Shown: piece by piece, positions 35,721-42,042 of the stretch
Layout: each line of letters begins with the position of its first letter
Numbering within the stretch: the stretch's first letter is position 1
IMG/VR virus record: IMGVR_UViG_3300042547_000432
Strand: one strand, 5' to 3'
Origin: a virus
DNA length: 64,000 nucleotides
Made by a program: the position numbers and the translations under genes
Notes under the pieces: model-generated
Told to the model about the DNA's origin: nothing
The model's database searches: none
The model's input: only the letters and a program-made list of their open reading frames with translations

Positions 35721-35751
35721 TAGGTTTTCTCCTTAATGGTTTAGGTTAAAG

Positions 35752-35835
35752 AGCGTTCCTTCGGTCGTTTGCGTTCGCTATAGCGAATGAACGTTCCGTT
35801 CCGCGACTTACTTCCGTCCCATAGGGATGAACGTA
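35752..35835 (-). ncRNA. Glutamine riboswitch-like RNA (glnA / Downstream-peptide family)
   Basis: CGTTCA...GGAAGTAAG...CGAAGGAACG consensus elements directly upstream of a YRG peptide. Confidence 0.75.
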
Positions 35836-36643: not shown

Positions 36644-36645
36644 AG

Positions 36646-36742
36646 ATGGGAGGGGTATCCCACACGAAGTTGCTTACGGATTACGCTTCGTAGCCTTATG
36701 AATCCTGCCATCATCCGATGGTGGTTAGAAATCCCTCCCCAA
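36646..36742 (-). ncRNA. Putative structured RNA closed by a 7-bp acceptor-like stem
   Basis: GGGAGGG/CCCTCCC+A closing stem; internal CCATC/GATGG, GGATT/AATCC, ACGAAG/CTTCGT helices. Confidence 0.45.
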
Positions 36743-36821
36743 TTCCAGTTGTTGCTACAACATTTCTCTACACACTGGCAAACTCTAAGAAATGCGTGAG
36801 AGTTAGAATACTGACTCTCAA

Positions 36822-36895: not shown

Positions 36896-36899
36896 AAGG

Positions 36900-36990
36900 T
36901 GAGAGAGGAGGGAATTGAACCCCCGATGGTTCTTATGTAACGGTTTTACAGACCGCAGCCACACGTATTGCCAACAGTAGCCACTCTCTC
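36900..36990 (-). tRNA. trnY: tRNA-Tyr(GTA) with enlarged D-arm
   Basis: GCGGT-CTGTAAA-ACCGT; acceptor GAGAGAG/CTCTCTC; D region GGCTACTGTTGGCAATACGTGTGGCT. Confidence 0.8.
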
Positions 36991-36993
36991 ATA

Positions 36994-37065
36994 TGGGTCT
37001 GGCGGGATTCGAACCCACAACTTGCTGGTTAAAAGCCAGTTACTCTACCGTTGAGTTACAGACCC
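36994..37065 (-). tRNA. trnK: tRNA-Lys(TTT)
   Basis: ACTGG-CTTTTAA-CCAGC. Confidence 0.92.
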
Positions 37066-37112
37066 AAGAGTTAAATTGTCAAGGTGCTGGTGGGTCTCCC
37101 ACCGATGTATCT

Positions 37113-37150
37113 ACAATAAAATAGGGGGGCGGTTTTGTCAACTGCCCCCC
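37113..37150 (-). promoter_or_regulatory. Sigma70 promoter for the main tRNA run, -35 inside a terminator-like hairpin
   Basis: TTGACA-17-TATTGT; GGGGGGCAG-TTGACAAAA-CCGCCCCCC then T-rich tail. Confidence 0.8.
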
Positions 37151-37181
37151 TGATAAATCTTGCTTATGTGTCAGATGTCGG

Positions 37182-37283
37182 TCATCGTTTCCACTTATGA
37201 GCAAGCACGGGGGCCTGAGCAATATGCCAATAACGGCAATCGCTTTCCATAAAAATCTCAATTTGCTTGCTGAAGTTAGTCAT
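37182..37283 (-). CDS. 33-aa peptide
   Basis: MTNFSKQIEIFMESDCRYWHIAQAPVLAHKWKR; TAAATA upstream. Confidence 0.4.
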   Translation of the reverse strand: MTNFSKQIEIFMESDCRYWHIAQAPVLAHKWKR

Positions 37284-37319
37284 GATGTTCGACCTTTAGT
37301 GTTTATTTATAAGAGTTTA

Positions 37320-37415
37320 GATGGAGTAAGCGTAATACACCTCAAGGATGTAACAGAGGCTTACCCTCTATCTCGCTACGGCATTCTGGATTATCAGCTC
37401 CAGCGCAAGTAGCAA
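37320..37415 (-). ncRNA. 96-nt structured tRNA-trailer element, copy 1 (after tRNA-Asn)
   Basis: 93/96 identical to 40924-41019; differences preserve pairing. Confidence 0.75.
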
Positions 37416-37488
37416 CTCCCCCACCTGGACTCGAACCAGGAACCCCAGAGTTAACAGCTCCGTGCTCTGCCAATTGAGCTATAAGGGA
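37416..37488 (-). tRNA. trnN: tRNA-Asn(GTT)
   Basis: CGGAG-CTGTTAA-CTCTG; G73. Confidence 0.9.
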
Positions 37489-37494
37489 ATGAAA

Positions 37495-37665
37495 TCAGGA
37501 TTGCTTACAATCCATCATGTATTCTACAGTATTTGCTATGTCATTCATAGCATCACGTAGATGTGGTTGTTGACCACTTTCTTGTCTAACCATTGGGCGA
37601 TGGTTATCGGTAAGAGACCAGCGCCATTGCTTTACAATAGCACAATACCATAGATTAATTTTCAT
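37495..37665 (-). CDS. Conserved small hypothetical protein (MKINLWYC...WRWSL)
   Basis: Start refined within the 94-aa ORF. Confidence 0.6.
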   Translation of the reverse strand: MKINLWYCAIVKQWRWSLTDNHRPMVRQESGQQPHLRDAMNDIANTVEYMMDCKQS

Positions 37666-37825
37666 GTTTGAAATATTCAAGTCTAATCCAGTTGAGAAGG
37701 GCATTGATTTCAAATGACGAATGATTTGGTGTGCCCAGATAATACTCAGTATTCTCTGCGTCGGCAACATATTTTTCAAGAGCTGCTATGGCAACTTCTC
37801 TGTCTCTTTGTGAAATAAGTGACAT
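37655..37825 (-). CDS. Small hypothetical protein (MSLISQRDREVAI...)
   Basis: GAGG SD upstream. Confidence 0.6.
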   Translation of the reverse strand: MSLISQRDREVAIAALEKYVADAENTEYYLGTPNHSSFEINALLNWIRLEYFKHEN

Positions 37826-37847
37826 GTTATTTATCCTCAAGGATAAG

Positions 37848-37919
37848 AGCGGGGTATCGGAATCGAACCGACGACATCTAACTTGGAAGGATAGCGTTCT
37901 ACCGCTGAACTAACCCCGC
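37848..37919 (-). tRNA. trnG: tRNA-Gly(TCC)
   Basis: CTATC-CTTCCAA-GTTAG; acceptor GCGGGGT/ACCCCGC; U73. Confidence 0.9.
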
Positions 37920-37920
37920 A

Positions 37921-38157
37921 GATGCTCTCTGCTACACTATGTATCTGCTACGATACCATGTAGTTTTGAGCAAACCCAACATATTGGGTTGCAATCTCCA
38001 GTTTTTCATGCCTTTGATTGCGTGATAGAGGCTTGATTGCGAAAGGCAATCTGTTTGAGCATATCATAACGACCGTGCCAATCTCGGACTAGGCTAACTT
38101 AATACTACCTGGCCAGATAGTTGGCGTCTTTCTAGGCTATCTGCCTAACGACTACCA
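37921..38157 (-). ncRNA. Putative 237-nt multi-hairpin RNA between tRNA-Leu and tRNA-Gly
   Basis: Hairpins at 37973-37990, 38035-38051, 38133-38147 and a loop-complementary segment at 38115-38120. Confidence 0.5.
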
Positions 38158-38158
38158 A

Positions 38159-38239
38159 TGTCGCTGAAAGGACTTGAACCTTCACGTTAAAAACACTGGA
38201 ACCTAAACCCAGCGCGTCTACCAATTCCGCCACAGCGAC
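38159..38239 (-). tRNA. trnL: tRNA-Leu(TAG)
   Basis: CTGGG-TTTAGGT-TCCAG; class II variable arm. Confidence 0.9.
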
Positions 38240-38243
38240 GTGG

Positions 38244-38317
38244 GGGCGGGAGTGGGATTTGAACCCACGACCTGCGGCTTATGAGACCGCTGAACTACCA
38301 GACTGTTCCATCCCGCG
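38244..38317 (-). tRNA. Initiator-like tRNA-Met(CAT)
   Basis: 5' CGCGGGA with unpaired C1; GCGGT-CTCATAA-GCCGC (third G-C pair of the initiator stem replaced by U-G). Confidence 0.8.
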
Positions 38318-38328
38318 TTGACCCCCAT

Positions 38329-38365
38329 ATTATATATGAGGGAAGTGGGGGTTGTCAATCCCCCC
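38329..38365 (-). promoter_or_regulatory. Sigma70 promoter, -35 inside G/C hairpin
   Basis: TTGACA-18-TATAAT; GGGGG-ATTGACAA-CCCCC. Confidence 0.7.
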
Positions 38366-38495
38366 GTTGCTCGGCTCGCCACCTGCCCTTTGACCAGAGG
38401 CAGGAAACTGGGCGGGAGTAACCCCATCCGCACCACCAGTTTTTGAGAGAAACTGGAAACTCATGAAGGGGGACTTCACCCGACCAGGGCAAGTT
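38365..38495 (-). ncRNA. Structured RNA with two repeated subunits, possibly manA-motif-like
   Basis: GTTTC-CAGTTT..AAAAACTG-GTGG and GTTTC-CTGCC..AAAGGGCAG-GTGG units; family name from memory, unverified. Confidence 0.55.
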
Positions 38496-38500
38496 TAGTG

Positions 38501-38695
38501 TCATTCCGAGACAGGTTGAGGAATCAAATCCTCGTATGCAGCTTCTACTGCTTTTTCAAAATCGTCGAAAGGTCCGTGGTTTACTTCATTATAGACATAA
38601 TAATATTTGTCTTCCACTTCCAAAACATCGAAGTAAGTAATAACTTCATCATCGTTGTCAAGTTTTTCAACAATTCTCATCTTAACAGGATTCAT
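38501..38695 (-). CDS. Hypothetical protein
   Basis: Start refined (MNPVKMRIVEK...). Confidence 0.5.
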   Translation of the reverse strand: MNPVKMRIVEKLDNDDEVITYFDVLEVEDKYYYVYNEVNHGPFDDFEKAVEAAYEDLIPQPVSE

Positions 38696-38705
38696 ACCTA
38701 AGCAT

Positions 38706-39071
38706 TCAAAGGGTAACATTGACTCCACCAGTACTGTTATAGTCCGTCCGTGACTCTGTATAATATGTATAAGGAGCAAATACATTCATATGCTCATTAA
38801 ACTTTACAGGAGTGCTGGCATACTTAAAATCATATTGTACTTTGCCATCTTCTCTTTTGGTTTTGTCAATAGAAATCAAACCTTCCACTGCGGAACCGCC
38901 CCTTTCTTTAGCAGCTGCTTCAATGCGCTCAGCAAACATCGTATTGTCAATTTCAATCAATGCTTTAGAAATCGCAGAGATTACATAAACACTTTCTTTA
39001 TCAGCAAACTTAAGTGCTGTGCGTAGAGCATCTTCTGCTCGCTCAAGTTGATACTTTACTGAGTCATTCAT
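38706..39071 (-). CDS. Hypothetical protein (MNDSVKYQLERAEDALR...)
   Basis: Start refined; overlaps upstream stop. Confidence 0.6.
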   Translation of the reverse strand: MNDSVKYQLERAEDALRTALKFADKESVYVISAISKALIEIDNTMFAERIEAAAKERGGSAVEGLISIDKTKREDGKVQYDFKYASTPVKFNEHMNVFAPYTYYTESRTDYNSTGGVNVTL

Positions 39072-39333
39072 CTTCATCATCGTCATCTCCTTTAATATAG
39101 CATGGAACTGTATCTGGGTCAAGCCACTTAGTATACTCAAAATCCTCAATCGCTGTCATAAACTGCATTTCGTTATCACAGAGATACATGTCACGGTAAC
39201 GACCAGTAAACGAACACATCTTCTGAATTCGATAATCTGGTTTGCCGTTAATCTCCAGGATGCCTGCTTGAACGTAGCGATAAGGGAAACGATCAAGAAT
39301 GGTCTTCACGCGGTTTGGGTTTGTTACACTCAT
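39064..39333 (-). CDS. Conserved cyanophage hypothetical protein
   Basis: DRFPYRYVQ.G.LEING.PDYRIQK...YLCDN.MQF. Confidence 0.7.
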   Translation of the reverse strand: MSVTNPNRVKTILDRFPYRYVQAGILEINGKPDYRIQKMCSFTGRYRDMYLCDNEMQFMTAIEDFEYTKWLDPDTVPCYIKGDDDDEDE

Positions 39334-39508
39334 TACAGTAGTAGGAGAATCCTGTGCGAAAGTATTTTACCACTTGGTAGTGGTCCTTGTCAAGGGGTTG
39401 CTCGGTGTGGCACTTGGAACAGATTCTAGTCCCACCACCAACAGAGATTTGTGAGCGTTGCGAGGAACTGTTCGTGATAGACTGTACGACTCGGATTGGG
39501 TTTACCAT
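39293..39508 (-). CDS. Small Zn-finger-like protein, start uncertain
   Basis: CSKC...CNEC; 83-nt overlap with upstream gene. Confidence 0.45.
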   Translation of the reverse strand: MVNPIRVVQSITNSSSQRSQISVGGGTRICSKCHTEQPLDKDHYQVVKYFRTGFSYYCNECNKPKPREDHS

Positions 39509-40013
39509 CTTTCATGTCTTGTAGATACTGGATTATACCACGAACTACTGGGGTGTCTTGGAAGTATTCGTGCATTCGGTAACAATCAAACTTCTCATTG
39601 TATTGAATGAAATCGTGAAGTGGATCCATGTTACGACGGTATCCCCAAATGAATACATCTTCATCTTTGATGCCATGTTTGTTGATGATTTCTAATGGAT
39701 AAAACTTTTGTCCATCTTCATCTTTCACAGCATCTTCTTCCCTTTCTTCTGTATCAAACTTGAAATGAAGACCATCATAATACTTTTCATGTAACTCTTC
39801 ATCTGGTGCTACACGAACTCGCTCATTCTTTGCCATGATATATTCCATGCGACCTTTGGCATCCTCGTTAGTCAAACGGAATACAATATTGCCAATGTAG
39901 TAATGTACGGGACCACCATAGAGGTGAGAAGATTCCCGTCTCCTGAATGATAGATGAGTAATCTCAAATCCAGGGTCTTCGTGTTCAGTTTCAACTAATC
40001 CTTGTGAAATCAT
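39426..40013 (-). CDS. Conserved cyanophage hypothetical protein
   Basis: 195 aa ending LCWWWD. Confidence 0.7.
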   Translation of the reverse strand: MISQGLVETEHEDPGFEITHLSFRRRESSHLYGGPVHYYIGNIVFRLTNEDAKGRMEYIMAKNERVRVAPDEELHEKYYDGLHFKFDTEEREEDAVKDEDGQKFYPLEIINKHGIKDEDVFIWGYRRNMDPLHDFIQYNEKFDCYRMHEYFQDTPVVRGIIQYLQDMKDGKPNPSRTVYHEQFLATLTNLCWWWD

Positions 40014-40213
40014 AGTTCAAAATTGTCGAGGTCTTTACCAGATTTGATATGCTGCTTGCGAAGTTTTTTTAGTTCCTTCATCATGTCTTTAATCTCTTTG
40101 TATGCTTCATCAGCATTCATTTTACCACCAACTTCTAAACCAACGATAAGTTCTACTTTGTCACCGAATCTAGCAAGGGCTCGCTCAAATTCAGTAAGTG
40201 TTTCGTAACCCAT
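40010..40213 (-). CDS. Conserved small hypothetical protein
   Basis: FERALARFGDKVE...EVGGKM.A.EAYKEIK. Confidence 0.65.
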   Translation of the reverse strand: MGYETLTEFERALARFGDKVELIVGLEVGGKMNADEAYKEIKDMMKELKKLRKQHIKSGKDLDNFEL

Positions 40214-40237
40214 AATAACCTCATGTGTTTGTTTATA

Positions 40238-40330
40238 TAGGGGCGGAGGGACTCGAACCCCCAACCGCACGGTAATCTGCCGTATACGAAAGGTATAAGC
40301 TTTCCGCTCTGCCAATTGAGCTACACCCCC
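40238..40330 (-). tRNA. trnI: tRNA-Ile(TAT) with long variable arm
   Basis: GAAAG-CTTATAC-CTTTC; variable region GTATACGGCAGATTACCGTGCGGTT; A73. Confidence 0.75.
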
Positions 40331-40337
40331 GTAAATA

Positions 40338-40410
40338 TGGAGAATAGCGGACTCGAACCGCTGACATTCGCCTTGCAAAGGCGCTACTCTACCAACTGAG
40401 TTAATTCCCC
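40338..40410 (-). tRNA. trnA: tRNA-Ala(TGC)
   Basis: GCGCC-TTTGCAA-GGCGA; G3-U70. Confidence 0.92.
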
Positions 40411-40557
40411 TTGTATTCGCTCATAGTATGAATATGGAAGAAGCATAACATCAGAACCATTAGCAGTCGTAATAATAAAACTTTCTTTATTGAGCATCAC
40501 AGCATCCATAATCTCATCAAAGTCGTGGCAAAAAGTTTCTTCTGTAATCGTTTTCAT
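40384..40557 (-). CDS. Phd/YefM antitoxin-like protein
   Basis: MKTITEETFCHDFDEIMDAV...ESFIIT.ANG.DVMLLPY fits the Phd N-terminal pattern. Confidence 0.6.
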   Translation of the reverse strand: MKTITEETFCHDFDEIMDAVMLNKESFIITTANGSDVMLLPYSYYERIQGELTQLVE

Positions 40558-40826
40558 ACCATACACTCCATGTCTTTTTCTTCTTGTAGGCAACCGATAC
40601 TAGTTAAATATTCGATGGTTTCATTACATCCTCCCATCAGATGACCATCAAGAGTCACACGAGGAAAAGTAGCACCTTCACCAAACTTATTATAGAATGC
40701 TTCCCTATTGAAGTCAACATCCAGTTTATACTGCGTGTATTTGACAGTAAAACTATCAAGGATGACCTTGAGCTTACGACAATATTCACAGTTATCTCTT
40801 GTGTAAATAACCAGTTGCGAAATCAT
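40554..40826 (-). CDS. Glutaredoxin
   Basis: YTRDNCEYC; ATFPRV...LMGGC. Confidence 0.9.
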   Translation of the reverse strand: MISQLVIYTRDNCEYCRKLKVILDSFTVKYTQYKLDVDFNREAFYNKFGEGATFPRVTLDGHLMGGCNETIEYLTSIGCLQEEKDMECMV

Positions 40827-40847
40827 TAATGTCTCCTAAAAGAAGAA

Positions 40848-40921
40848 TCGGCGTGGCAGGATTTGAACCTGCGACCTTCTGCTCCCAAAGCAGTTGCGCT
40901 ACCAAGCTGCGCTACACACCG
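40848..40921 (-). tRNA. trnP: tRNA-Pro(TGG)
   Basis: ACTGC-TTTGGGA-GCAGA. Confidence 0.92.
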
Positions 40922-40923
40922 TT

Positions 40924-41019
40924 GATGGAGTAAGCGTAATATACCTCAAGGATATAACAGAGGCTTACCCTCTATCTTGCTACGGCATTCTGGATTATCA
41001 GCTCCAGCGCAAGTAGCAA
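40924..41019 (-). ncRNA. 96-nt structured tRNA-trailer element, copy 2 (after tRNA-Ser-TGA)
   Basis: 93/96 identical to 37320-37415. Confidence 0.75.
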
Positions 41020-41104
41020 CGGAAGTGGTAGGATTCGAACCCACGATGGCTTTCACCATGCTTGTTTTCAAGACAAGTTCCTTCAACCACTCGGACACAC
41101 TTCC
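41020..41104 (-). tRNA. trnS: tRNA-Ser(TGA)
   Basis: CTTGT-CTTGAAA-ACAAG; long variable arm; G73. Confidence 0.92.
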
Positions 41105-41119
41105 ATTTGTTGACCTCCA

Positions 41120-41157
41120 TATTATATAGGAGGTCTGGGGGGTCTGTCAACCCCCCA
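41120..41157 (-). promoter_or_regulatory. Sigma70 promoter, -35 inside G/C hairpin
   Basis: TGGGGGG-TTGACAGA-CCCCCCA; TATATAAT downstream. Confidence 0.7.
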
Positions 41158-41163
41158 CGGTCA

Positions 41164-42042
41164 TCAGAATTTGATGCCGAGACCCGTGGTAAACACAGGC
41201 GAGTAGGTGCCGTTGGTAGCACCGTAGCTGTTAGCAGCGTTGGTGGTAGGGAATTTCAGATCAGCAAAACCAACGAGGGAGTTGGTGATACGACCTTCAA
41301 GACCAATAGCAAGCACAGCTTGTCCACGATTACCAACTGCCGATTGGAAGTTAGCATCAGAGTTGTTAACAAAAGGCACTTGATAACCAGCAGCAGCATA
41401 GATGTTAGCGGCGCTTACACCTGCCTTGCGAGCGATAGACCAGTCATAAGAGACGAGAGCACCACCAGCAGTGCCAATGTTGCCAGAGGGACCAGCAACG
41501 GCATTCAGATAAGGACGAATAGACACAGCATTCTGGTTGCTGAAGTTTTTCACAGCATAGCGAGCCTGGAGGGTAGCACCACCCACAGTCTTCTGAGCGG
41601 TCTGACCAGCACCAGCAACGCCTTGCTGATTCAGCAGCACACCGAGACCAACGTAGTTGCCAACGCCCTGTGCCTTGCGAGCAGCAGCGACCTCAAGGGC
41701 GCTCACGCGGGTGTTGGTAGCAGCAATCTCCTTAGCAAACTGAGCGCGTAGAGCAGCAGCCAGAGCAGCGTCAGCGGCGCTCTGATACTCGCTGATACGG
41801 TCAAGGCAAGCGTTAGTGAGAGCGGCGAGCTCAGCACGAGAAGCAGGTTCACCAGGCTTGAAAGTGCCGTTAGGATAACCAGCGACACAACCGTAACGAG
41901 AGATCAGGTTAGAGATAGCTTGATAAGACCAGTCAGTAGGTTGGACATCTTTCAGTTGAGTCACACTGGTAACTTGTGCCATGGCAGGAGCAGCAATAGA
42001 AGCAGCAGCAACACCAGCAGCAATAAATGAACGAATCATCAT
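41164..42042 (-). CDS. SLH-domain outer-membrane protein (cyanobacterial Som/porin-like N-terminus, short beta-barrel)
   Basis: Signal peptide; DVQPTDWSYQAISNLISRYGCVAGYPNGTF; coiled coil; alternating beta strands; terminal Phe. Confidence 0.8.
   Translation of the reverse strand: MMIRSFIAAGVAAASIAAPAMAQVTSVTQLKDVQPTDWSYQAISNLISRYGCVAGYPNGTFKPGEPASRAELAALTNACLDRISEYQSAADAALAAALRAQFAKEIAATNTRVSALEVAAARKAQGVGNYVGLGVLLNQQGVAGAGQTAQKTVGGATLQARYAVKNFSNQNAVSIRPYLNAVAGPSGNIGTAGGALVSYDWSIARKAGVSAANIYAAAGYQVPFVNNSDANFQSAVGNRGQAVLAIGLEGRITNSLVGFADLKFPTTNAANSYGATNGTYSPVFTTGLGIKF

Follow-up and report, generated by a model that had tools for sequence, protein, structure and literature searches.

Two conserved RNA hairpin modules among the tRNA genes of cyanophages

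What is a 96-nt sequence that occurs twice in a viral tRNA array, each time fused to the 3΄ end of a different tRNA? We addressed this question in the window (the whole stretch of viral DNA analyzed here, 64 000 nt), in which the tRNAs lie on the minus strand in 24 out of 24 cases. Both copies of the sequence, at positions 37320–37415 (copy 1) and 40924–41019 (copy 2), are on the same strand, and their 5΄ ends are the bases following the discriminator G of tRNA-Asn and tRNA-Ser(UGA), which according to Rfam end at 37416 and 41020, respectively. The gap between copy 2 and the following tRNA-Pro (40921) is 2 nt. The repeat search, which matched 37320–37416 with 40924–41020 (97% identity; a unit of 97 nt, 1 nt beyond the 96), and the tRNA ends agree with the initial annotation, which had described two 96-nt copies after a discriminator G with 3 nt differences. 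On the plus strand, these differences (copy 1/copy 2) are 37338/40942 C/T, 37350/40954 G/A and 37374/40978 C/T. Positions 37350 and 37338 pair in the RNA, and the C-G pair of copy 1 is replaced by U-A in copy 2, a compensatory change; position 37374 (G in copy 1 and A in copy 2 on the RNA) pairs with U2, giving U-G and U-A, respectively. The features around both copies are listed in Table 1.

Table 1. Features at the two copies of the repeat in the window and the basis of each assignment
Feature	Position	Strand	Basis or remark
Predicted sigma-70-type promoter (TTGACA, 18-nt spacer, TATAAT; 12/12)	41121–41150	−	Consensus match only
tRNA-Ser(UGA), discriminator G at 41020	41020–41105	−	ARAGORN/Rfam tRNA calls
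M1 copy 2 (RNA nt 1–43)	40977–41019	−	CM R2, 64.0 bits over 40975–41021; covariation; fold
M2 copy 2 (RNA nt 44–96)	40924–40976	−	CM R1, 81.1 bits over 40924–40978; covariation
tRNA-Pro(UGG), begins 2 nt past M2	40848–40921	−	ARAGORN/Rfam tRNA calls
tRNA-Asn(GUU), discriminator G at 37416	37416–37489	−	ARAGORN/Rfam tRNA calls
M1 copy 1, G at 37374	37373–37415	−	CM R2, 61.9 bits
M2 copy 1, inner pair 37350/37338 C-G; outer helix 37366–37359 with 37331–37324	37320–37372	−	CM R1, 79.9 bits
Putative 33-codon ORF with AAAGG Shine-Dalgarno-like site	37182–37283	−	Begins 36 nt past M2 copy 1

Two independent, conserved and folded non-coding RNA modules make up the 96-nt repeat: a rod-shaped hairpin of ∼43 nt (M1, nt 1–43) and a hairpin of ∼55 nt (M2, nt 44–96). 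Among the matches listed, M2 followed M1 in 27 out of 77 unique M1 instances by the strict motif, and in ∼35 of the 77 when visual inspection also admitted variants like ACGAGGG and ACAGAGG, and M1 was present in 11 out of 106 unique M2 upstream contexts. The two modules were thus found apart more often than together in these matches, and the single 96-nt RNA family envisaged initially is replaced by two. The fold of the 96-mer consists of two rods, with its first base paired (z = –2.7).

In copy 2, the outer helix of M1 pairs 41019–41013 with 40983–40977, and a junction (UUGCG/AAUGCC) leads to an inner hairpin (CUGGA/UCCAG) with the loop GCUGAUAA; 6 out of 7 outer pairs covary, with 3–5 pair types each. 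M2 of the same copy opens with the 5΄ sequence GAUAGAG, followed by an outer helix (40970–40963 with 40935–40928), an internal loop (CUCUGU/UUAC), an inner helix (40956–40951 with 40945–40940) closed by the loop CUUGA, and a 3΄ tail, CCAUC. For the outer helix (columns 9–16 with 46–53), 7 out of 8 pairs were compensated and 99.7% of the cells were paired; the M2 covariation score was reached by 0 of 500 shuffles, and slid controls collapsed. Covariation in this helix was seen again in a sample that is unbiased for M2 because it was collected through M1 (A3). The initial annotation had read the C-G/U-A swap and the G-U/A-U change between the window copies as selection on structure, and since both helices covary across the homologues, this reading amounts to far more than chance. 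G-U pairs dominate at four positions across the M1 and M2 helices, and the opposite strand scores 8–9 bits with the M2 model (CM R1), as compared with ∼80 bits for the tRNA strand; the tRNA strand is therefore the folded strand. Covariation and this strand-specific fold also uphold the proposal of an unannotated structured non-coding RNA selected for structure on the tRNA strand. The plus-strand ORFs over the repeats (37197–37412 and 40894–41016) were rejected as protein coding because their homologues differ by 1-nt and 2-nt loop indels.

Among the unpaired bases of M2, GAG, CnCUGU, AC and CCAUC are invariant, and columns 16, 18, 43 and 46 show co-variation that the helices do not account for. 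A natural 40-nt mini-version (contig L167:3375–3414) has lost the inner hairpin and keeps the invariant bases and the outer helix. The inner loop has 5 nt (CUUGA) in approximately one quarter of the copies, including both in the window, and occurs in 7-nt forms (CUUAUGA/CUGAUGA). A pseudoknot had been predicted for this region, of which one part stands: the GUAAGC/GCUUAC pairing is real (7/8 compensated), and it forms the nested outer helix of a long hairpin. The AGAGG/CCUCU hairpin required for the knot (columns 4–8 with 18–22) is not conserved: 54 of the 73 distinct homologues have a mismatch at its central A-U pair (8–18), no double changes occur, and it was unused in the RNAalifold and MFE folds; the knot topology is consequently unsupported. 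Several other structural candidates were also rejected. For a GAU/AUC pairing that closes M2 in the MFE fold, changes on the 5΄ side were never compensated and CCAUC was invariant; a reading of the inner loop as a hammerhead core or a mimic of an anticodon loop does not suit the 5-nt loops and the natural variant without the hairpin; a kink-turn would lack its tandem G-A signature; and HDV-like and pistol-like layouts, tried by hand on the 96-mer, did not fit the strand order and had no Rfam match.

We compared the element with the Rfam 15 covariance models, and no match was obtained over it at E ≤ 1 (12 kb) or E ≤ 10 (111 nt), or in contig L043. A match to a described Rfam family and homologues without covariation had been named beforehand as refuting outcomes; the search returned no family, and the homologues covary. 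Novelty is stated here relative to Rfam 15 and may not extend to the viral candidate RNAs of PMC10690425, which number 10 006. By pattern scans, M2 was found in at least 120 and M1 in at least 116 stretches, counts that represent non-independent events since the samples include related metagenomic contigs. The carriers are lake and marine cyanophages, including Synechococcus myoviruses (five with M2 and three with M1), and ∼90% column identity with compensatory changes is maintained over well above 100 contigs of freshwater, estuarine and marine phages. Cellular genomes lack M2: in the 185 579 species genomes searched for this module, the sole carriers were three tiny MAG contigs. Among contigs of four metatranscriptome runs compared with 37000–41200, a few carried an M2 variant with the 7-nt loop; these were set aside as evidence because ends, strand and level are unreadable in them and DNA carry-over is possible.

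The modules occupy characteristic positions relative to tRNAs. Among the matches listed, M1 started 0–2 nt past a tRNA discriminator in ∼57 of 77 unique instances, and it was found behind at least 10 tRNA identities. M2 was followed within 0–8 nt by a tRNA in 88 out of 152 unique contexts listed and by a tRNA-shaped module in a further 15, the spacers between M2 and the tRNA consisting of A/U only; an ORF lay downstream in 8 out of 152, as is the case for copy 1 in the window, and other non-tRNA modules were also found there. The strand of M2 was that of the neighbouring tRNAs in all 127 elements listed (127/127; opposite, 0). A predicted promoter (TTGAC-N16–18-TAnnnT) preceded M2 in 33 of the 106 unique contexts listed, with 7–8 nt (3 nt in four cases) between the end of the predicted –10 element and GAUAGAG, so that M2 would often be the first thing transcribed from a predicted sigma-70 promoter. 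Other trailer hairpins in these arrays likewise open with UU directly past the discriminator. tRNAs in the window array are often only 0–3 nt apart, with no module between them, and odd tRNA-like genes occur in the arrays.

We favor, with somewhat better than even confidence, a model in which M1 and M2 of T4-like cyanophage tRNA operons share a transcript with the tRNAs and are excised from it as stable small RNAs that bind a partner in trans. Transcription would start at early sigma-70 promoters; in the window, the predicted promoter upstream of tRNA-Ser(UGA) would drive a unit of this tRNA, M1, M2 and tRNA-Pro. Host RNase Z would generate the 5΄ end of M1 by its cut past the discriminator of the upstream tRNA, and RNase P would generate the 3΄ end of M2 by its cut at the next tRNA. 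Release by tRNA processing, already raised in the initial annotation, is plausible because the repeat abuts tRNA ends precisely. The window product would be a tRNA-sized RNA of two hairpins, which we infer to be stable because its 5΄ base is paired and its 3΄ overhang is short. The invariance of the unpaired bases suggests a specific partner in trans, whereas the location of M1 at tRNA 3΄ ends and of M2 at 5΄ ends is equally compatible with a cis role in the maturation of tRNAs, and the 0–3 nt spacing of tRNAs without modules argues neither way on a trans role. A bolder and, in our judgment, unlikely extension is that cyanophage tRNA operons serve as production lines for a repertoire of small, folded RNAs with ends set by tRNA punctuation, in which M2 binds and modulates a particular host or phage factor, e.g. 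a tRNA-acting ribonuclease or a defence nuclease. If M2 does bind such a factor, this would provide a first handle on the purpose of the T4 RNAC/RNAD-type RNAs.

The cis interpretation, which we consider possible but rather unlikely, takes M1 as a 3΄ trailer and M2 as a 5΄ leader that adjust how RNase Z, RNase E or RNase P cleaves or that shield precursor ends against exonucleases, with the excised pieces as by-products. It accounts for M1 starting right past discriminators and M2 stopping right before tRNA 5΄ ends, for the trailer hairpins that share the UU opening, and for the CCAUC tail in the part of the leader closest to where RNase P cleaves; moreover, RNase E shares in cyanobacterial tRNA maturation (PMC10939160). 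However, many tRNAs of the same array do without such a module, M2 also stands before ORFs and non-tRNA modules, and it was not found in cellular genomes, the home of the host enzymes' own substrates. Alternatively, the modules could be conserved DNA-level linkers for recombination and shuffling of tRNA cassettes, similar to PeSL (promoter-early stem-loop) motifs, and have no role as RNA. Depending on the contig, the same composite follows tRNA-Ser, Asn, Arg or Leu, at 90–99% identity, the block tRNA-Ser(UGA), X, M2, tRNA-Pro contains differing X modules, and M2 is flanked by promoter and hairpin motifs that resemble PeSL (PMC4122927). Plain recombination linkers, however, require sequence identity and not base pairing, whereas the helices here are kept by compensatory changes while the sequence varies, G-U pairs make the fold strand-specific and the orientation is always that of the tRNAs in the elements listed; we thus regard this explanation as improbable. 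The proposal of a tRNA-targeting mobile RNA is unsupported, as target-site duplications and terminal repeats are lacking, the flanks are unrelated and M1 and M2 also occur apart.

Invariant unpaired bases, their exact retention with the outer helix in the 40-nt mini-version and the co-variation of columns beyond the helices speak for M2 as a novel small ribozyme, or an RNA that senses a ligand, with the loop and tails as an active core, possibly pseudoknotted. This seems highly improbable to us: neither M1 nor M2 matched a ribozyme or riboswitch family of Rfam 15 (hammerhead, HDV, twister, pistol and hatchet included), M2 and the tRNA are 0–8 nt apart, a variable distance at which self-cleavage could not yield exact tRNA ends, an expression platform has no room, and the knot hairpin is mismatched in most homologues. 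The ribozyme suggested initially is unsupported, given the lack of a match to an Rfam ribozyme family and the variable spacing to the tRNA. It is scarcely credible that the modules are decayed tRNA genes with no present function, although the unit is approximately the size of a tRNA, GAUAGAG is similar to the D-arm of neighbouring tRNAs and odd tRNA-like genes are present, because no cloverleaf was detected in M1 or M2 by ARAGORN or by the tRNA model of Rfam (RF00005), even at E ≤ 10, and the conservation and compensatory changes described above extend over so many phage contigs.

The closest precedents for tRNA-punctuated small RNAs are T4 rnaC (species 1) and rnaD (species 2), stable RNAs that have been known for decades and whose biological role is unknown (PMC3014915). 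rnaD begins 1 nt past tRNA-Arg and rnaC 6 nt past rnaD; like them, M1 and M2 are non-tRNA elements that lie within the tRNA cluster of a T4-like phage, share the strand of the tRNAs and directly abut a tRNA, and the T4 RNAs are roughly tRNA-sized, as is the M1–M2 unit. However, M1 and M2 share no sequence or structure similarity with them: in T4 69500–74500, the best M2 match (R1) was 11.7 bits on the other strand, with none in or near rnaC/rnaD, and M1 (R2) gave a 16.2-bit partial match outside these genes. They are also single hairpins of 43 and 55 nt rather than RNAs of 119 and 139 nt, and are modular, with several copies at many positions. Small RNAs from tRNA-operon spacers exist in E. 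coli (10.1101/2021.04.25.441314); as with 3΄ETS-leuZ and the ITS sponges, M1 and M2 occupy transcribed spacers or trailers of a tRNA operon, from which tRNA-maturing RNases would release them, although the E. coli RNAs base-pair with sRNAs that depend on Hfq and do not form strongly structured, conserved hairpins. In MHV68, tRNase Z frees pre-miRNA hairpins from the tRNA-like TMERs (PMC4838037), where a hairpin likewise directly follows a tRNA-type structure; a host tRNA 3΄ endonuclease would similarly set the 5΄ end of M1, but the TMERs belong to a eukaryotic Pol III and Dicer pathway and have no homology to it.

A T4 rnaC/rnaD-like arrangement is thus present in cyanophages in the form of conserved, modular and widely distributed RNA families, and the placement rules make M1 and M2 clean, testable candidates for the role of non-tRNA passengers in phage tRNA operons, with carriers available in culture as hosts and phages (S-SRM01, S-CREM1, S-SZBM1 and S-RIM32). 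For annotation, these spacers are not empty intergenic DNA, and both motifs could enter Rfam. PeSL of T4-like phages combine a sigma-70 early promoter with a stem-loop and recur between genes in plastic regions subject to modular shuffling (PMC2839356, PMC4122927). Many M2 copies have similar promoter and hairpin motifs immediately upstream; unlike PeSL, M1 and M2 have no internal promoter, lie downstream of the predicted start site and have helices that covary as RNA. That the modules are shuffled among tRNA contexts agrees with the modular shuffling by recombination known for T4-like phages (PMC2839356, PMC4122927). Gene conversion between the two window copies was considered and set aside, the identities not being decisive: a copy in contig L207 matches copy 2 at 99% identity, and the nearest relative of copy 1 is copy 2 (96.9%).

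The 96-nt repeat comprises two modules on the minus strand, M1 (RNA nt 1-43) and M2 (nt 44-96), which are structured RNA families under purifying selection and tied to tRNA ends. The two copies showed 97% identity in a repeat search of the window (37320-37416 and 40924-41020), and on the minus strand the first base of each directly follows the discriminator G of tRNA-Asn or tRNA-Ser(UGA). A 33-codon predicted ORF lies downstream of copy 1 after a 36-nt gap, and tRNA-Pro begins 2 nt past the end of copy 2. The initial annotation had correctly described both copies, their start after the discriminator G and their three differences: sites 37338/40942 and 37350/40954 pair with each other (C-G versus U-A between the copies), and site 37374/40978, in the outer helix of M1, is U-G versus U-A. 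Covariance-model searches of the window and of the entire contig both detected each module exactly twice. The window belongs to a lake-water viral contig of 85.7 kb in IMG/VR. The 24 tRNA genes of the window all lie on the minus strand, and the closest cultured relatives of the array region are Synechococcus myoviruses (Kyanoviridae). The wcaG RNA and glutamine riboswitch listed below are typical of T4-like cyanophages.

Features of the tRNA array and its surroundings
Feature	Coordinates	Strand	Remarks
Repeat copy 1 (M1, M2)	37320-37415	-	behind tRNA-Asn
Repeat copy 2 (M1, M2)	40924-41019	-	behind tRNA-Ser(UGA)
Predicted sigma-70 promoter	41150-41121	-	12/12 consensus match; ahead of tRNA-Ser(UGA), M1, M2, tRNA-Pro
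Promoter block	41156-41109	-	directly precedes tRNA-Ser(UGA)
Promoter block	38364-38317	-	directly precedes tRNA-Met
wcaG RNA	38368-38464	-	Rfam, 93.5 bits; just upstream of tRNA-Met promoter
Glutamine riboswitch aptamer	35750-35835	-	Rfam, 41.9 bits (gathering score 35); shortly behind the final array tRNA
tRNA-Asp/tRNA-Glu spacer	36645-36820	-	176 nt
tRNA-Ile(UAU)	40238-40330	-	93 nt (ARAGORN)
tRNA-Arg(GCG)	36898-36990	-	93 nt (ARAGORN)

The repeat had been proposed to be a single 96-nt RNA, which was not borne out, as M1 and M2 are separate and are found apart more often than together. In blastn comparisons with phage records, the match was limited to the 3' 55 nt of the repeat, always within or beside tRNA genes (S-RIM8 (KX349286), S-RIM32, S-SRM01, S-SZBM1 and S-CREM1). 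Pattern scans of IMG/VR yielded at least 120 stretches for M2 and at least 116 for M1, most of the latter on contigs other than those of M2. Among the matches listed, M2 follows 27 of the 77 unique M1 instances under the strict motif; adding, by eye, M2 variants outside that motif raises this to about 35. Of the 106 unique contexts listed upstream of M2, only 11 contain M1. S-SZBM1 has M1 as the sole element filling its tRNA-Ala/tRNA-Asn spacer, and in S-RIM8 M1 lies behind tRNA-Thr with M2 250 nt further on. The full composite occurs at about 50 other loci among the matches listed, behind tRNA-Ser, Asn, Arg and Leu.

In the alignment of M1 (56 sequences among the matches listed), six pairs of the 7-bp outer helix each showed three to five pair types. 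This helix surrounds a conserved junction, UUGCG / AAUGCC, where three more pairs are possible, and the loop of the inner hairpin contains GAUAA. Four positions in the alignments of M1 and M2 are dominated by G-U pairs and the opposite strand scores just 8-9 bits; the tRNA strand is therefore the folded one.

For M2, we aligned 74 sequences among the matches listed (57 columns, mean column identity 90%). The outer helix (columns 9-16 with 46-53) was the best supported, with changes on both sides in seven of eight pairs and 99.7% of cells paired; no shuffle reached its score, and slid controls collapsed. The inner helix (columns 23-28 with 36-41), which was partly fixed in this alignment by the search pattern, contains one G-U/A-U pair and one covarying pair, the latter being the same pair that differs between the window copies. 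In the sample found through M1, which is unbiased for M2, the inner helix was 99.4% paired, with one double and three one-sided changes. RNAalifold and single-sequence folds gave a nested rod, in which the outer helix leads through an internal loop (CnCUGU / U(C/U)AC) to the inner helix, capped by either 5 or 7 loop nucleotides. Of the pseudoknot predicted initially, the long-range pairing thus stands, since the outer helix covaries, whereas the knot topology finds no support: the middle pair of its AGAGG/CCUCU hairpin is mismatched in 54 of 73 aligned sequences, with no covariation. The invariance of G7, G9, C17 and C19 would be compatible with a knot in M2, but no covariation supports one. 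A natural 40-nt variant (L167:3375-3414), with tRNA-Ala beginning 1 nt on, lacks the inner hairpin and retains GAUAGAG, the outer helix, CnCUG...CAC and CCAUC, an indication that the core of M2 lies in its junction and tails. The 16-46 base pair co-varies with two unpaired columns, 18 and 43 (columns 16, 18, 43 and 46 correspond to 40963, 40961, 40938 and 40935 in copy 2). Together the four columns show one of two states, C,U,U,G, seen in the window, or U,A/C,C,A; this could reflect a tertiary contact or mere lineage.

All 127 M2 elements among the matches listed share the orientation of neighbouring tRNAs, and no opposite-strand tRNA was found near them. Among the 152 unique M2 contexts listed, a tRNA lies within 8 nt of CCAUC in 88, the tRNA-shaped module M3 (GUAGGAA...UCCUACCA) is downstream in a further 15, another module, M4, in 9, and a Shine-Dalgarno sequence with ATG in 8; 31 were classed as others, several of them atypical tRNAs or ends of contigs. 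Between M2 and the downstream element, the spacers consist of A/U only. Upstream of M2, a consensus sigma-70 promoter was present in 33 of the 106 unique contexts listed and a tRNA with a small hairpin in 27, and some copies directly follow an ORF stop codon. The -10 box ends 7-8 nt before GAUAGAG (3 nt in four cases), so that transcripts there would open with M2. M1 starts 0-2 nt past the discriminator in about 57 of the 77 instances listed, covering at least ten tRNA identities. As judged from sequence, both modules are transcribed in the tRNA direction from predicted consensus early promoters. The two promoter blocks in the table are 81% identical, with perfect sigma-70 matches and G/C runs on either side; at other loci, promoters behind tRNA-Leu bear a palindrome (GACAATC...GATTGTC) across the -35 and -10 boxes.

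The real existence of a structured RNA is strongly supported, and the expectation that it was unannotated held: no family matching M1, M2 or M3 was found in Rfam 15, even at permissive thresholds, and nothing is annotated at M1/M2 sites in the phage records. The literature searched, which did not extend to a 2023 compilation of viral RNA candidates without names, gave no description of M1 or M2. The M2 pattern, the only one used in a cellular scan of 185,579 prokaryote species (one genome each), matched six contigs. Three carry true M2, on MAG contigs of 505-802 nt that are probably mis-binned phage fragments; the other three were chance partial matches.

RNase Z cleaves CCA-less cyanobacterial precursors after the discriminator. 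This enzyme would generate the 5' end of M1 and RNase P the 3' end of M2, and the window product would be a two-rod RNA of 96-98 nt. Its predicted paired first base and 4-6-nt 3' overhang would be expected to confer resistance to 5'-end-dependent RNase E/J and to 3' exonucleases (for cyanobacterial RNase E, see PMC10939160). The chief alternative is that M1 and M2 act in cis, in maturation or protection of the adjoining tRNA, and the strict placement of M1 as trailer and M2 as leader fits it equally well. The occurrence of several unrelated leader and trailer modules in these arrays argues for a repertoire of separate small RNAs rather than one generic processing signal, and the invariance of unpaired bases argues for a specific partner. 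We consider it unlikely that the modules are DNA-level linkers for shuffling or dead tRNAs; a ribozyme or riboswitch is likewise improbable, and the earlier ideas of a ribozyme or mobile RNA were not supported.

M1 and M2 are two new families of a known, poorly understood kind. The closest system, T4 rnaC/rnaD, resembles them in architecture and has an equally obscure role, but covariance-model searches revealed no homology. Functional analogies are provided by E. coli tRNA-spacer sRNAs and by MHV68 TMERs, hairpins released by tRNase Z. The promoter and hairpin motifs upstream of the modules resemble PeSL shuffling cassettes and, by analogy, may explain module movement between tRNA contexts.

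Other elements were observed in these arrays. M3 (L043:2585-2677 and many other loci) is about 90 nt long and runs from GUAGGAAGUGCAA to CCCUCCUACCA. It is closed by an acceptor-like stem, encodes a CCA-like end and begins 3-6 nt past M2 in at least 15 contexts. The tRNA-Asp/tRNA-Glu spacer, which may hold further modules, has UU and a hairpin (UUGAGAGU...ACUCUCA) right behind the discriminator, and its far end, close to tRNA-Glu, reads ...CCCCUCCCAUC; a CAUC ending ahead of a tRNA is thus seen outside M2 too. A tRNA-Asn trailer hairpin (UUAGAAGGUCUGGAAAUGUCUGG.UCUUCUAA; L002:1625-1660, L097, L067, L080, L110) lies right behind the discriminator in several contigs and in S-SRM01. The tRNA-Ile(UAU) and tRNA-Arg(GCG) genes are unusually long, and the former appears to have a long extra arm. 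Three tRNA-shaped genes with a normal T-arm (L001:1352-1423, L005:1553-1625, L003:1436-1505) have an anticodon region unreadable to ARAGORN ('tRNA-???'); such genes are conserved in S-RIM8, S-RIM32 and S-SZBM1, and the S-RIM8 locus-tag numbering omits _027 here.
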